From an uncultured Bacilli bacterium (GTDB lineage Bacteria; Bacillota_I; Bacilli_A; RF39; UBA660), in assembly GCA_934090935.1 (NCBI GenBank), contig CAKOKD010000001.1, forward strand, positions 290,571 through 354,570: a stretch of DNA of 64,000 bases. The letters are read 5' to 3'. Positions 3,956-33,895 of this stretch are shown here, piece after piece (position 1 is the first letter of the stretch; every line of letters starts with the position of its first letter). Below the pieces are notes generated by a model. It was not told the origin of the DNA, did no database searches, and saw only the letters and a program-made list of their open reading frames with translations. The position numbers were made by a program, and so were the translations under genes.

Positions 3956-4172
3956 TGTAAAGCAATTGATGAAGACGTTAAATAATGATTTTTTATAGAG
4001 AAGCTGTGGGTGGTGCAAACAGTTAAAAATAGTTATTTAAGAATCACTTCTAATGCGACTTAGGGATAAGCTAAGTACGTTTACTGCGTTAAAGTTAATA
4101 AAGTGTGAATTACATTCATAAAATAGGATGGTACCACGGACTTGTTCGTTCCTATGTTATGGATGTTTTTTT
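3956..4172 (+). promoter_or_regulatory. T-box riboswitch leader of ileS
   Basis: Conserved T-box sequence AAATAGGATGGTACCACGG at 4122-4139 followed by a U-run (4165-4172) before the ileS RBS. ileS is a classical T-box-regulated gene in Firmicutes. Stem I, specifier and terminator pairing were not resolved by eye. Confidence 0.6.
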
Positions 4173-7100: not shown

Positions 7101-7292
7101 AGTGGGTTAAATATTGAAGATAGAATTAAACTTTATTTCTATGGTGATGATGAAGTAAATGATGCTTTAATAATGTTTAAAGATTATGTTAAAGAAGAAA
7201 CATTAGCAGTAGTTTACGAAGAAAAAGAAAGTGGAGAAGTTGTGGATATCAACGGCCATGACGTTATAATATCAATAGAAAAGAGTGAATAA
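4191..7292 (+). CDS. ileS: isoleucyl-tRNA synthetase (long, type-2-like form)
   Basis: HIGH-like PGIHHVLAKT, KMSKSTGN, a zinc-knuckle CPRCG...CSCG, about 1030 aa. The track start at 4128 lies inside the leader; ATG 4191 (MKNFKELDK) with AAAGGAAA RBS is preferred. Confidence 0.93.
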   Translation: MKNFKELDKRKASEVEESILETWKKEDILNETIKNRKNGKNWVFYDGPIYANAKPGIHHVLAKTIKDSFCKYHTMKGERVLRKIGLDTHGLPIEVNVEKKLGFKTKADIEAFGVENFCRECNKATALNIDEINAVTDKMGQFIDCEHPYVTCSNEYIESEWWIIKEMDKKGLLYHGNKVLWYCPRCGTELSQNEVSQGYEETSVNTVIVPLKRVDADEYFLAWTTTPWTLMANVAICVNPELTYIKVLSQGYKFILASALASKVLGEDYEVLETYKGSDLVGIKYKQLMPFVHVEGKCHEVIADNYVTAEDGTGIVHIAPAYGEDDNRVCRENGIGFVNPVGLDGCYTEGPWKGTLVTDPNLEIEIIKWLKENDKLFKKIKIVHDYPHCWRCHSPLISYPKPAWYIKTTAYKDKIIEENKKINWYPDYVGNKRFANWLDNMIDWGISRNRYWGCPLPVWTCSCGNKCVVGSIDELQELVIEDVDVRKMELHRPYVDELHVKCDKCGKSMDRVKDVLDVWFDSGAMPYAQYHYPFENKELFESQFPADFIAEGLDQTRGWFYVLLVISTIISGESSFKNVVVNDMVLDGFGKKMSKSTGNIVDPINELDEYGADIVRWYMLSVSPVWTPLKYDSKGCREVHSKFFNPFKNTYTFFQTYANIDGIDTDECDVAYEDREEIDKWLLSKYNKLVKNVTDAYEAYDLNQVVKQITSFVSEDLSNWYIRRNRNRFWSSELDNSKKSVYITTYEVLIGLCGLCAPVIPYITEEIYKNLTGEKSVHLSDFPKYDENLINEEIEVKMDLVRDLISTGRYVREETKIKVRQPLSEALIDGKYESILGNLVSLINEELNVKKVTFVDDLSKYMNFTIKPNFKVCGSMFGSKMGLYSETLKNLSLDDEEALLKEETITVDFNGERLDITPEMVDVRIDAKEGFNVGMENNKFIILNTELTRDLLLEGLAREFVSKVQNMRKTSGLNIEDRIKLYFYGDDEVNDALIMFKDYVKEETLAVVYEEKESGEVVDINGHDVIISIEKSE

Positions 7293-7303: not shown

Positions 7304-7345
7304 ATGCTTTCTAGGTTCTAATTTTGTCGACATTTGTCGGATTTA

Positions 7346-7373
7346 TTGACAATGAAAATTAACTATATATAAT
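7346..7373 (+). promoter_or_regulatory. consensus sigma-A promoter inside R1 (TTGACA-16-TATAAT), immediately preceded by the TGTCGACA palindrome
   Basis: TTGACA 7346-7351, TATAAT 7368-7373. TTGTCGACATTTGTCGG at 7324-7340 is a candidate operator. Confidence 0.6.
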
Positions 7374-7469
7374 ACAAACTCGAGAAGCAGAAAAAGATGC
7401 TTATCACTTCCAAACTAGAGGCTAAATTATTCGGGGTTTTGGTTAAGGAGTACGAGAGGAAGTGATACG

Positions 7470-7547
7470 ATGAAGAAGGATAATCAAATAAGATTACTTT
7501 ATCTAATCGTTTTTATATTGTTAATAGTAATTCTAAAATTATTATAG
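7470..7547 (+). CDS. small hydrophobic peptide (25 aa, MKKDNQIRLLYLIVFILLIVILKLL), candidate type I toxin
   Basis: ATG preceded by GAGGAAGTGATACG. The SD region GGAAGTGATA is complementary to upstream TATCACTTCC, predicting SD sequestration. ORF conserved in all three R copies. Confidence 0.5.
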   Translation: MKKDNQIRLLYLIVFILLIVILKLL

Positions 7548-7551
7548 CAAC

Positions 7552-7640
7552 AAAAAAAAGCATCTTTATTCTACTGAATAAGGATGCTACACCCATAAGT
7601 GGTAAGCATCAGCCTCAAAAGAAACTTCTGCTTCTCACTA
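7552..7640 (-). ncRNA. putative antisense sRNA (antitoxin candidate) convergent to the small ORF
   Basis: On the minus strand a TATATT -10 sits about 7 nt upstream of GTGAGAAGCAG, with a -35-like TTACAT 17 nt further up. The transcript would end at hairpin GCATCCTTATTCAGTAGAATAAAGATGC plus U8. The + strand has an A-run before this hairpin and no U-run after it, so it terminates minus-strand transcription only. Confidence 0.4.
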
Positions 7641-7750
7641 AATTAAATATAGCATAATCAAAATAAAATGTAAATATTTACACATAATAGTATTGTTATA
7701 CCGAATAAAAAATTAATCTATGGTACAATTAAAATAGAATGGTGTGTATT

Positions 7751-9061
7751 ATGAAGAGAAAGAGTGCATTAGTATTTACAATTTTATTATTAGCGGTGGG
7801 ATTTGCTGCCGTGTCAACAACTTTAGTAATAAATGGGTCTGCAAAAGTAAGTGAAAATACAGAGGATTTTTCTGTAATATTTACCAAGGCTTCATTAGAT
7901 GGAACAGATGTATATGCAAATATAGTTGATGATACTAAAAAGATAATAAATTTTTCAACAAATGAATTAAAGACAATAAATCAAACAAGTGTGTTAAATT
8001 ATGAAGTAACAAATAATTCAAGCAATTATGATGCTGAAGTTCAAGTAACTTGTAAATTAAAAGATGGTGGGTCTGCTAAATATACAAGTATCAAAAATGA
8101 ACTAGAAGGAAATGCAACAATTGTAAAAGCCAAAGAAAGCTTAAATGGAACATTAACAGTTAACTTAAAAAAAACTGCTACAGAAGAAGTAAATGAACAA
8201 TATGTTTGTGAACTAACGTTTAATGCAGTAGAGAGAACTCAGTTGGGAAATAATCCAGCTATTGATAAGCTAATATCTTTAGCTAATTCTGAGGAAATAA
8301 ATTCATATGAAAATGGAAATAAAAATCAATTATATGTTTTTAATCATGAGCAAACTAAACAAACAGAAGCCCTAAGCGACTATCGTTTTATTGGCGATAA
8401 TCCATATAATTATATAAAGTTTAGTGGTGAAACATGGAGAATATTAGGTATCTTTGATATTGATGGAGAAAAAAAGATTAAAATAATAAAAAATGATACT
8501 TTGGATAGTTCATACGCTTGGGATACTAACGGAAAAAATAATTTTATAATTTCAAGTTTAAATAATTATTTAAATGAAAATTATTATGAAACTTTGGATA
8601 AAAATTATATATCAAAAACAAAAATCTACTTAGGTGGAACTGATATGATGCAATATGTAAAGGCAAATGAATGGTATAGTCATGAAAGAAGTAATAAAGT
8701 GTATTCTGGAAACCCAAGTTATTATAATGACGCATATGTTTCTTTAATGTATCCATCGGATTTTGCTTATACTTATGCCTATGGAATTGACAATGAGTGT
8801 TTTAATAATGGATTTGGATGTGATGTTTCATCAGGAAGAACTAATAGTTGGATGTATATTGGTAAAAATATGGAAGCATTTATAACTCCTGATTCAAGTT
8901 CAAGTAATCAAATTTATAGAATGAATTCTTCCAGTGGTTATAATAAAAGTACATCTTCAACTTTAATGTATATAAGACCAGTTGTATATTTAAATAGCAA
9001 TGTGAAATTTATTTCAGGAGATGGATCAAGCACAAATCCTTATAAATTAGATACAAATTAG
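7751..9061 (+). CDS. secreted family member A: conserved N-terminal module plus lectin-like C-terminal domain
   Basis: Probable start MKRKSALVFTILLLAVGFAAV (the track's 7739 start adds MVCI). N-module is highly similar to the 14603 and 56406 genes (FSVIFTKASLDG.DVY..VDDTKKII.F......QTSVLNYEVTNNSSNYDAEV.VTC...YVCELTFNAVER). C-terminus ...WMYIG...YIRPVVYL...GSSTNPYKLDTN. Own promoter with extended -10 TGGTACAAT; no poly-G. Confidence 0.8.
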   Translation: MKRKSALVFTILLLAVGFAAVSTTLVINGSAKVSENTEDFSVIFTKASLDGTDVYANIVDDTKKIINFSTNELKTINQTSVLNYEVTNNSSNYDAEVQVTCKLKDGGSAKYTSIKNELEGNATIVKAKESLNGTLTVNLKKTATEEVNEQYVCELTFNAVERTQLGNNPAIDKLISLANSEEINSYENGNKNQLYVFNHEQTKQTEALSDYRFIGDNPYNYIKFSGETWRILGIFDIDGEKKIKIIKNDTLDSSYAWDTNGKNNFIISSLNNYLNENYYETLDKNYISKTKIYLGGTDMMQYVKANEWYSHERSNKVYSGNPSYYNDAYVSLMYPSDFAYTYAYGIDNECFNNGFGCDVSSGRTNSWMYIGKNMEAFITPDSSSSNQIYRMNSSSGYNKSTSSTLMYIRPVVYLNSNVKFISGDGSSTNPYKLDTN

Positions 9062-24478: not shown

Positions 24479-24698
24479 ATTTATAACAATATAAATTAAA
24501 ATGACTATAATTAAGAGTGTATAACTCTTTTTTTTGTATTTTAGGTTCTAATTTTGTCGACATTTGTCGAGTTTGTTGACAAGAAAAATTAACTATATAT
24601 AATAACCAATTGAGAAGCAGAGAAAGATGCTTATCACTTCCAACTAGAGGCTAAATATTCAGGGTTTTGGTTAAAGGAGTACTAGAGGAAGTGATACG

Positions 24699-24776
24699 AT
24701 GAAAAAAGATAATCATATAAGATTACTTTACTTAATCGTTTTAATATTGCTAGTAATAATTTTAAAATTATTATAG
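24699..24776 (+). CDS. small hydrophobic peptide (25 aa, MKKDNHIRLLYLIVLILLVIILKLL), candidate type I toxin, copy 2
   Basis: Same RBS-sequestering arrangement as R1. Confidence 0.5.
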   Translation: MKKDNHIRLLYLIVLILLVIILKLL

Positions 24777-24863
24777 GAAAAAAAGCATCTTTATTCTACT
24801 GAATAAGGATGCTACAACAAACACGTGGTAAGCATCGGCCTCAAAAGGAACTTTTGCTTCTCA
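24777..24863 (-). ncRNA. putative antisense sRNA, copy 2
   Basis: Minus-strand TTGAAA-17-TATATT upstream of GTGAGAAGCAAAAG; ends at the conserved hairpin plus U-run. Confidence 0.4.
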
Positions 24864-24917
24864 CTAAATAAAATATAACATTTTTTAAAAGTGTTTTCAA
24901 TATATAAGGTAATAATT

Positions 24918-33497: not shown

Positions 33498-33670
33498 GTG
33501 TTTTATTTTTTTAGGTTCTAATTTTGTCGACATTTGTCGGATTTATTGACAAGGTAAATAAAGTATATATAATACAAACTCGAGAAGCAGAAAAAGATGC
33601 TTATCACTTCCAAACTAGAGGCTAAATTATTCGGGGTTTTGGTTAAAGGAGTACGAGAGGAAGTGATACG

Positions 33671-33754
33671 ATGAAAAAAGATAATCATATAAGATTACTT
33701 TATCTAATCGTTTTTATATTGTTAATAATAATTTTAAAATTATTATGTCAATAA
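33671..33754 (+). CDS. small hydrophobic peptide (27 aa, MKKDNHIRLLYLIVFILLIIILKLLCQ), candidate type I toxin, copy 3
   Basis: Conserved ORF, RBS paired with the upstream TATCACTTCC. Confidence 0.5.
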   Translation: MKKDNHIRLLYLIVFILLIIILKLLCQ

Positions 33755-33838
33755 AAAAAGCATCTTTATTCTACTGAATAAGGATGCACCGCAAAATGTG
33801 GTAAGCATCAGCCTCAAAAGAAAACTTCTGCTTCTCAC
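33753..33838 (-). ncRNA. putative antisense sRNA, copy 3
   Basis: Minus-strand TTGTAA-17-TATATT then GTGAGAAGCAG; ends at the hairpin plus U7. Confidence 0.4.
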
Positions 33839-33895
33839 TAAAATAAATATAACATTTTTCAATATAAATTACAATGATAATAAATAAATACACTT

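Follow-up and report, generated by a model that had tools for sequence, protein, structure and literature searches.

The 64,000-nucleotide (nt) stretch of contig CAKOKD010000001.1 analysed here, which is referred to as the window, comes from an uncultured bacterium with a G+C content of approximately 27%. It contains three closely related cassettes, R1, R2 and R3, all on the plus strand, each approximately 350 bp long and together about 90% identical (alignment A1, mean column identity 90%). Each cassette comprises a promoter, an untranslated leader, a short open reading frame (ORF) for a hydrophobic peptide, a terminator hairpin belonging to a predicted convergent antisense RNA, and a downstream segment, the 3′ arm, that is complementary to the leader. 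The subject of this analysis is that complementarity, together with a second leader pairing, at the Shine-Dalgarno (SD) sequence, that shares nucleotides with it.

Complementarity between the leader and the 3′ arm

The leader begins with two blocks, X1 and X2, which find their partners, Y1 and Y2, in the 3′ arm at a distance of approximately 190 nt in each cassette. A repeat finder returns the pair 7382-7392/7626-7636 as 11 nt with 100% complementarity and the pair 7396-7409/7597-7610 as 14 nt with 93% complementarity, the exception being one U.G. An earlier sequence-only reading of this DNA had described two helices around an internal loop with one wobble, and its description matches this arrangement. 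The leader segment that it quoted, GAGAAGCAGAAAAAGATGCTTATCAC, is present at 7382-7407 in R1 and at 33582-33607 in R3, and with one mismatch at 24612-24637 in R2. The downstream segment, GGTAAGCATCAGCCTCAAAAGAAACTTCTGCTTCTC, is present at 7601-7636 in R1, with three mismatches at 24827-24862 in R2, and with a 1-nt insertion in R3, where it ends at 33836. The sequences had been given correctly and the coordinates had not, the true positions lying 3-8 nt further upstream. The pairing is also kept in all three copies, as had been proposed: GAGAAGCAGAG in the R2 leader, set against UUUUGCUUCUC, forms two G.U pairs.

The predicted duplex between the leader (30 nt) and the 3′ arm (42 nt) has a free energy of -33.4 kcal/mol, and shuffled arms yield -7.8 +/- 2.4 kcal/mol (best -19.0, with 0 of 2000 equalling the real arm). 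When the leader is compared with the whole 64-kb window, its three top partners are the cassettes' own 3′ arms (-35.1, -33.2 and -31.9), and the next site reaches -23.1. The 255-nt RNA spanning 7382-7636 folds end to end, with a free energy of -78.2 kcal/mol and a z-score of -7.39. The repeats do not mark the ends of the conserved unit but lie within it, and each starts precisely at one of the two predicted transcription starts.

Table 1. Features of the cassettes, in coordinates of the window
Feature	Position	Strand	Description
Cassette R1	7307-7658	+	Region homologous in the copies; E = 3e-120 with an nhmmer profile built from all three
Cassette R2	24536-24884	+	Same nhmmer profile; X1 24612-24622, X2 24626-24639, Y2 core 24825-24836, Y1 24852-24862
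Cassette R3	33507-33859	+	Same nhmmer profile; X1 33582-33592, X2 33596-33609, Y2 core 33798-33809, Y1 33826-33836
Peptide mRNA promoter	7346-7373	+	TTGACA-16 nt-TATAAT; 12/12 consensus in R1, R2 and R3
X1	7382-7392	+	GAGAAGCAGAA; 5′-terminal leader block; partner Y1
X2	7396-7409	+	GATGCTTATCACTT; partner Y2; core of 12 bp, 7396-7407
Anti-SD	7402-7411	+	TATCACTTCC; 6-8 nt shared with X2
X3	7418-7423	+	GAGGCT; complementary to Y3
SD region	7458-7467	+	GGAAGTGATA; GAGG core from 7456, start codon at 7470
R1 peptide ORF	7470-7547	+	25 amino acids, hydrophobic, MKKDNQIRLLYLIVFILLIVILKLL
Antisense terminator	7551-7588	-	13-bp hairpin 7588-7559, then U8 at 7558-7551; fold of the minus-strand RNA
Y2	7597-7610	+	AAGTGGTAAGCATC; core GTGGTAAGCATC at 7599-7610
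Y3	7611-7616	+	AGCCTC; in the internal loop flanked by Y2 and Y1
Y1	7626-7636	+	TTCTGCTTCTC; partner of the first 11 nt of the mRNA
Predicted antisense small RNA	7551-7639	-	About 88 nt; complementary along its whole length to the 3′ arm and hairpin; promoter and terminator predicted
Antisense promoter	7646-7674	-	TTTACA-17 nt-TATATT in R1; -10 at 7651-7646, TG before the -10
R2 peptide ORF	24699-24776	+	
R3 peptide ORF	33671-33754	+	

Conservation of the 5′-3′ pairing among relatives

Relatives were collected from several sources. A scan of species-representative genomes with a 19-mer covering the SD sequence and the start codon returned one true relative and two chance hits; the relative, L002, is a metagenome-assembled genome of an uncultured Bacilli bacterium from the Hadza gut. 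A metagenome scan with the hairpin sequence returned 39 human-gut loci. A profile search of all the DNA fetched gave 46 matches, of which 32 are distinct copies with both ends. The terminator hairpin served as the search key, and variation in the hairpin itself therefore lies outside the comparison. Several copies are decayed. The ORF is frameshifted or stopped in L048, L023, L031 and L039; L038 has a broken ORF and has also lost the entire 3′ arm and the antisense promoter; and L045 has lost X1 and Y2.

Ungapped extraction of 23 core pairs from the 32 copies gave 644 Watson-Crick, 84 G.U, 5 A.C and 3 other combinations, so that 98.9% are standard pairs. In alignment A2, 97.0% of the cells of the 25 proposed pairs are paired, and sliding the 3′ partner by 1-3 columns lowers this value to 40-58%. 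The 12 core pairs of X2:Y2 are kept in the 32 copies save two decayed ones. At positions 9 and 10 of X1:Y1, the G-C and A-U pairs of R1 and R3 become G.U forms in most copies and A-U and G-C pairs in the L044 clade. A neighbour-joining tree of the central part of the cassette was used to infer changes by parsimony; the counts are approximate, and 32 changes fall in the helix pairs. A standard pair is retained by 27 of them (17 from Watson-Crick to G.U, 7 from G.U to Watson-Crick, and 3 double changes). The helix-breaking substitutions are concentrated in copies with dead ORFs: among the five changes that break a pair, three occur in copies with a broken ORF (L048/L023, L023 and L039), and the remaining two are found in L021 and at a helix-end position in L024. 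Single changes starting from a Watson-Crick pair are compatible with pairing in 17 cases and breaking in 5 (P ~0.009, with neutral compatibility taken as half).

Because a G.U pair in the plus-strand RNA corresponds to C.A in the opposite sense, the constraint acts on the plus-strand RNA, and not on a DNA repeat or on pairing between the antisense and the complement of the leader. From this comparison, the leader and the 3′ arm very probably pair within one plus-strand RNA, and the pairing is very probably selected. The long-range interaction within the peptide mRNA that the sequence-only reading had put forward is supported by the 32 copies, and covariation across further copies, the check named there, uncovered coordinated changes in both arms.

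A competing helix at the Shine-Dalgarno sequence

A second helix, absent from the sequence-only reading, connects an anti-SD segment of the leader with the SD region. The repeat finder returns it (7402-7411/7458-7467) as 10 nt with 100% complementarity. Across the copies, 96.2% of its cells are paired, and its covariation is equalled by 0 of 500 shuffles; by this comparison it covaries more strongly than the 5′-3′ helix, and the anti-SD is the most strongly covarying segment of the leader. A 1-bp insertion in the L044 clade is matched on both the anti-SD and the SD sides (UAUCACAUUCC with GGAGUGUGAUA). L041 and L027 carry C in place of a leader U, together with G in place of A in the SD region. 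The Y2 partner of this nucleotide is G in all copies, and the otherwise universal U.G pair of X2:Y2 becomes C-G in these two. Because both the SD and the Y2 pairings are kept, nucleotides 7402-7407/9 have two conserved and mutually exclusive partners.

A third block, X3, is complementary to Y3. The X3:Y3 core is approximately 99% paired. Among its changes are some compatible with G.U and one double change, in L027, and in the L044 clade the complementarity is 2 bp longer, with both sides extended. Since this pairing crosses X2:Y2, it could form only as a pseudoknot or in another conformer.

Transcripts and the predicted antisense RNA

Conservation among the 32 copies restarts exactly at GAGAAG, 8 nt past the -10 element of the peptide promoter, and L041 and L027 have an unrelated promoter with an identical RNA start. 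The mRNA is therefore predicted to start at approximately 7380-7382. Directly 5′ of the -35 element lies a block, TAGGTTCTAATTTTGTCGACATTTGTCG (7310-7338, 24540-24568 and 33510-33538), that is kept in nearly all copies and contains a palindrome, TGTCGACA, and a direct repeat of TTTGTCG; it may be a site for a regulator. L041 and L027, which use a different promoter, are without this block.

The hairpin between the ORF and the 3′ arm has the form of a terminator in the minus sense. On the plus strand, an A-run precedes it, and the stretch behind it is rich in A and C and free of U in every copy; because there is no U-run 3′ of the hairpin, it should not stop plus-strand transcription. The hairpin (7559-7588) is perfect in the plus-strand RNA, with one G.U, and contains a C.A mismatch in the antisense sense, which suggests that it could also be a structural element of the 3′ untranslated region of the mRNA. 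From the stop codon to the 3′ arm no plus-strand terminator is found, and the spacer is without U; the plus-strand transcript probably reads into the 3′ arm. The pairing of the leader and the 3′ arm within one RNA would carry the mRNA to at least 7636.

The antisense gene is predicted from its promoter and terminator, and the overlap of its product with the mRNA is conditional on where the mRNA ends. The predicted small RNA covers Y1, Y3, Y2 and the hairpin, and ends just past the peptide stop codon. Its promoter reads TTGAAA-17-TGnTATATT in R2 and TTGTAA-17-TGnTATATT in R3. Among the copies, the TG-extended -10 is kept almost without exception, and the -35 varies, with a TTGnnA-like hexamer held at 17 nt. 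Within the first 48 nt of the antisense, copies of the three leader blocks follow one another as X1, X3 and X2 (1-3-2), as against 1-2-3 in the leader.

The antisense is transcribed from the strand opposite the 3′ arm, so that an arm which pairs with the leader will necessarily give an antisense resembling the leader. The likeness is a geometric consequence of this layout, and not a separate feature or mechanism. The sequence-only reading had listed 5′-3′ pairing, and competition by an antisense near-copy of the leader for the 3′ element, as two non-exclusive possibilities; the resemblance holds, and the two are faces of one arrangement. Pairing of the antisense 5′ domain in trans with the SD sequence or the leader, as in systems of the par or SprA1 type, was considered and rejected, being no better than with shuffles: the best duplex between this domain and non-overlapping mRNA has a free energy of -17.4 kcal/mol, which 268 of 300 shuffles equal. 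As the rest of the mRNA is complementary at chance level only, the 3′ arm and the hairpin are the only target predicted for the antisense.

The encoded peptide

The peptides of the window are 25-27 residues long, with a KKDN head and a hydrophobic stretch of 17 residues, and are of the single-helix membrane type. Two peptide types occur on one RNA scaffold, MKKDN... (25-27 residues) and MFKKSFKQD... (30-39 residues), and the reading frame is kept in most of the 32 copies despite the two types and changes between ATG and TTG starts. No Pfam or NCBIfam family matches the peptides, and full-text literature searching with the sequence of the peptide or of the leader brought up no paper. A protein search with a peptide profile returned three true members only, two of them artefactual fusions with a leader ORF. 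The broken ORFs of several copies, together with the loss of the antisense gene in L038, are the only hint, and an indirect one, of possible toxicity and its neutralization.

An upstream ORF of 22 codons (7397-7465), starting from an ATG at 7397 inside X2, was rejected as a gene: indels shift its frame between clades, and it is probably non-coding. Public gene calls join this leader ORF to the peptide ORF in frameshifted copies (proteins P0001 and P0002).

Genomic context

R1 lies downstream of the isoleucyl-tRNA synthetase gene (ileS), which ends at 7292 and is preceded by an ordinary T-box leader (3957-4156; Rfam RF00230, 100.2 bits). On its other side is an ORF of 436 amino acids (7751-9061) with a signal-peptide-like N terminus and without a Pfam hit on record; this gene was seen only on gut-metagenome contigs, and stands beside ileS on the 22 contigs read. 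Just 3′ of the ileS terminator, the cassette of the window encodes a type A peptide, and the one in the related metagenome contig L018 (14527-14820) is of type B (MFKKSFKQD...). Because the same ileS-adjacent site holds different cassette types, the cassettes appear to be exchanged between sites or strains. Phage and plasmid collections contain no match to the cassette, and two scans of viral contigs gave no cassette match, or chance hits only.

Folding states and proposed mechanism

In folding predictions, transcripts cut at 95-212 nt form the SD helix with a probability of 0.82-0.93, alongside a small 5′ hairpin (AAGCA/UGCUU). Transcripts of up to 212 nt are equivalent to an mRNA whose 3′ arm is masked, that is, to the state expected under cover by the small RNA, and in them the SD helix is predicted to reach 9-10 bp. 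Once Y2 is present, the R1 leader is predicted to shift to it (probability 0.89), leaving the SD sequence half open. In the unbiased RNAalifold consensus, X1:Y1 closes the molecule, the 5′ 9 nt of X2 lie on Y2, and the 3′ 7 nt lie on the SD sequence. When 29 copies were folded one by one, the favoured state differed among them, and approximately half retained the SD helix. A clean switch, in which 5′-3′ pairing always opens the SD sequence, was rejected, as per-copy folding shows opening in only about half. The two states are predicted to differ in ensemble free energy by no more than about 4 kcal/mol in most intact copies. The models predict a poised pair of nearly iso-energetic alternative structures, not a determined switch.

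We consider it fairly probable that the cassette works as a type I toxin-antitoxin-like module built in the manner of bsrG/SR4, as follows. A strong promoter would give an mRNA of approximately 255 nt or longer for the peptide of 25-27 residues, and a convergent promoter an antisense of approximately 88 nt. During transcription, the anti-SD (7402-7411) would close on the SD region (7458-7467), keeping the nascent mRNA untranslated. Once the 3′ arm (7597-7636) has been made, the first 11 nt of the leader and its next block could pair with it, burying both termini. From that point, 6-8 nt of the leader could pair either with the SD sequence or with the 3′ arm, in states that are predicted to be nearly iso-energetic. 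The antisense, perfectly complementary to the 3′ arm, would compete with the leader for it. Its binding would free the leader and let the SD helix form fully or grow from about 7 bp to 9-10 bp; the mRNA:antisense duplex of about 88 bp would be a possible substrate of RNase III. Comparison of the copies establishes both pairings, their overlap, the conserved promoters and the terminator at the level of sequence; the succession of steps and the consequences of antisense binding we infer from folding models and from analogy.

A bolder version takes the 16 nt at 7396-7411 as a true toggle between the SD sequence and the 3′ arm, aided by the pseudoknot 7418-7423/7611-7616. Translation would then proceed only from the end-closed mRNA, with the 3′ arm acting as an anti-anti-SD, and the antisense would repress by mimicking the leader without ever touching the ribosome-binding site. 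We regard this version as doubtful.

Several observations weigh against the module proposed here. The metagenome copies were all found through an exact match to the terminator hairpin, and form one narrow clade with a mean column identity of approximately 80%. Most helix positions never vary, and recombination between copies may inflate the count of independent events. L049, another of the decayed copies, has an intact ORF, yet lacks X1 and half of X2. For the longer mRNA, no plus-strand terminator is visible up to 7751, where the next gene starts. The peptide is presumed toxic solely on the basis of its composition. Folding favours no single state of the full-length RNA across the copies, and in the approximately half of the copies predicted to keep the SD sequence sequestered with or without the 3′ arm, the antisense would not change translation.

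Alternative explanations

The end-to-end helix might serve RNA stability and definition of the 3′ end only. In such a scheme, the buried 5′ nucleotide would guard against 5′-end-dependent decay, the 3′ end would be shortened by exonucleases as far as the helix, the antisense would act just by forming an RNase III substrate, and the overlap between X2:Y2 and the SD sequence would have no regulatory meaning. Action through degradation is the mode of txpA/RatA and bsrE/SR5. The predicted persistence of the SD helix in the full-length RNA of about half of the copies, and its retention in the RNAalifold consensus, speak for this scheme, as does the fact that the helix begins with the first nucleotide of the predicted mRNA; in par, the 5′ upstream helix of RNA I stabilizes its transcript in a similar manner (PMC7472228). 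However, the GTGG of Y2 (7599-7602), which is in competition with the SD sequence, is invariant in all intact copies although a 9-bp X2:Y2 helix does not need it, the two states lie within a few kcal/mol of each other in most copies, and the U-to-C change of L041 and L027 at the shared nucleotide is matched by the SD sequence while still fitting the G of Y2. With these points set against it, we judge a stabilizing role alone to be unlikely.

Another possibility is that the mRNA ends near the hairpin (~7590), without the 3′ arm. The repeat would then be a 5′ module that both RNAs need, either the AAGCA/UGCUU hairpin or a protein site, and the antisense would pair only with a terminator overlap of approximately 40 nt. 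Both 5′ ends can indeed fold the same small hairpin, no terminator is seen for a longer plus-strand transcript, and convergent type I modules with a common terminator exist, par being an example (PMC7472228). Against this stand the absence of a plus-strand U-run at the hairpin in any copy, and the hairpin's being perfect in the plus sense and mismatched (C.A) in the antisense sense. Moreover, the differences between the leader and the antisense are nearly all of the G.U type in the plus-strand RNA (84 versus 5), which is unexpected for two independent modules, the changes in the two arms are coordinated, and the order of the blocks differs between leader and antisense. A short mRNA is, on this evidence, distinctly improbable. 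Still further from the data is an inverted repeat acting at the DNA level, as recombinase or regulator sites or as the ends of a mobile unit, without any RNA function. It would accord with the multiplicity of the cassette (three in the window and at least five on the contigs of single metagenome assemblies) and with the different cassette types at the site downstream of ileS. But the repeats are internal to the conserved unit and start exactly at both predicted transcription starts, the asymmetry between G.U and A.C on the two strands is not expected of DNA, and the phage, plasmid and viral collections contain no match; we consider this explanation highly improbable.

Comparison with known systems

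The cassette matches no Rfam family, and even a permissive scan brought it near no threshold; the Rfam scan of the window finds only the T-box, elsewhere. Among the described systems compared, par of Enterococcus faecalis pAD1 (fst RNA I/RNA II) has direct repeats and a bidirectional terminator (PMC7472228). Convergent promoters, an SD-sequestering stem-loop, a buried mRNA 5′ end and a small hydrophobic peptide are common to the cassette and to par/Fst/Ldr (PMC7472228). However, the direct repeats of par give the two RNAs complementary 5′ ends, whereas the inverted repeats of the cassette make the 5′ ends alike, and no pairing in trans was found. The par terminator works in both directions, whereas that of the cassette is one-directional, with no plus-strand U-run in any copy. 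Unlike Fst, the cassette peptide has no charged C-terminal tail and no hit to the Fst family.

The hok/Sok system of plasmid R1 and the aapA/IsoA system of Helicobacter pylori combine a long-distance 5′-3′ interaction with co-transcriptional SD hairpins (PMC6733600). The cassette resembles both in its end-closing interaction and in local SD-sequestering hairpins that come first, and aapA is also chromosomal and multi-copy. In these systems, however, a 3′ element masks the start region, trimming of the 3′ end activates the mRNA, and the antisense overlaps the 5′ part, none of which is seen in the cassette. In the cassette, the partner of the 3′ arm is the leader and not the SD sequence, removal of the arm is predicted to tighten the SD helix, and the antisense lies at the 3′ end. 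The hok-like analogue named in the sequence-only reading gives way to bsrG/SR4, since the hok 3′ element masks the start region and its antisense lies at the 5′ end.

On grounds of architecture, the closest precedent is bsrG/SR4, not hok. In the bsrG mRNA of Bacillus subtilis, nt 1-35 pair with nt 232-262 to form helix P1, and SR4 is complementary to the 3′ region of bsrG, in which the 3′ arm of P1 lies; when the two RNAs are in complex, nt 1-33 are single-stranded and the SD helix is extended from 4 to 8 bp, so that translation is inhibited besides the RNase III-dependent decay (PMC3834814). The cassette would likewise have a convergent toxin-like mRNA and antisense with a 3′ overlap, and its predicted antisense is complementary to the 3′ arm of an interrupted 5′-3′ helix. 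The counterpart of P1 is a helix of 11 and 12-14 bp, joining nt 1-28 with nt 216-255 if the transcript reaches 7636. The counterpart of SR4 is the predicted antisense over nt 170-257, and the SD helix is predicted to grow from 7 to 9-10 bp. The differences are that the cassette peptide has 25-27 residues, in contrast to 38 in BsrG; that the freed leader segment of the cassette is itself the anti-SD, so that the 3′ arm and the SD sequence compete for the same nucleotides; that the cassette mRNA is without a visible terminator, unlike that of bsrG (SL4); and that the cassette is multi-copy and occupies intergenic regions between core genes of an uncultured low-GC gut bacterium, not a prophage. 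No likeness to the sequences of BsrG or SR4 was detected via Pfam, NCBIfam and Rfam, and no direct comparison with BsrG or SR4 was made.

The cassettes would thus represent an undescribed multi-copy family of type I toxin-antitoxin-like modules in uncultured low-GC human-gut bacteria, of a design that is itself already known. The 32 natural variants form a covariation data set for two competing helices, and the compactness of the family, with an mRNA of approximately 255 nt and an antisense of 88 nt, would make it a handy model for the control of translation at a distance by a 3′-bound antisense. Current understanding is not overturned; rather, the bsrG/SR4 design, in which a 3′-bound antisense remodels the ribosome-binding site through a 5′-3′ helix, would recur outside Bacillus prophages.

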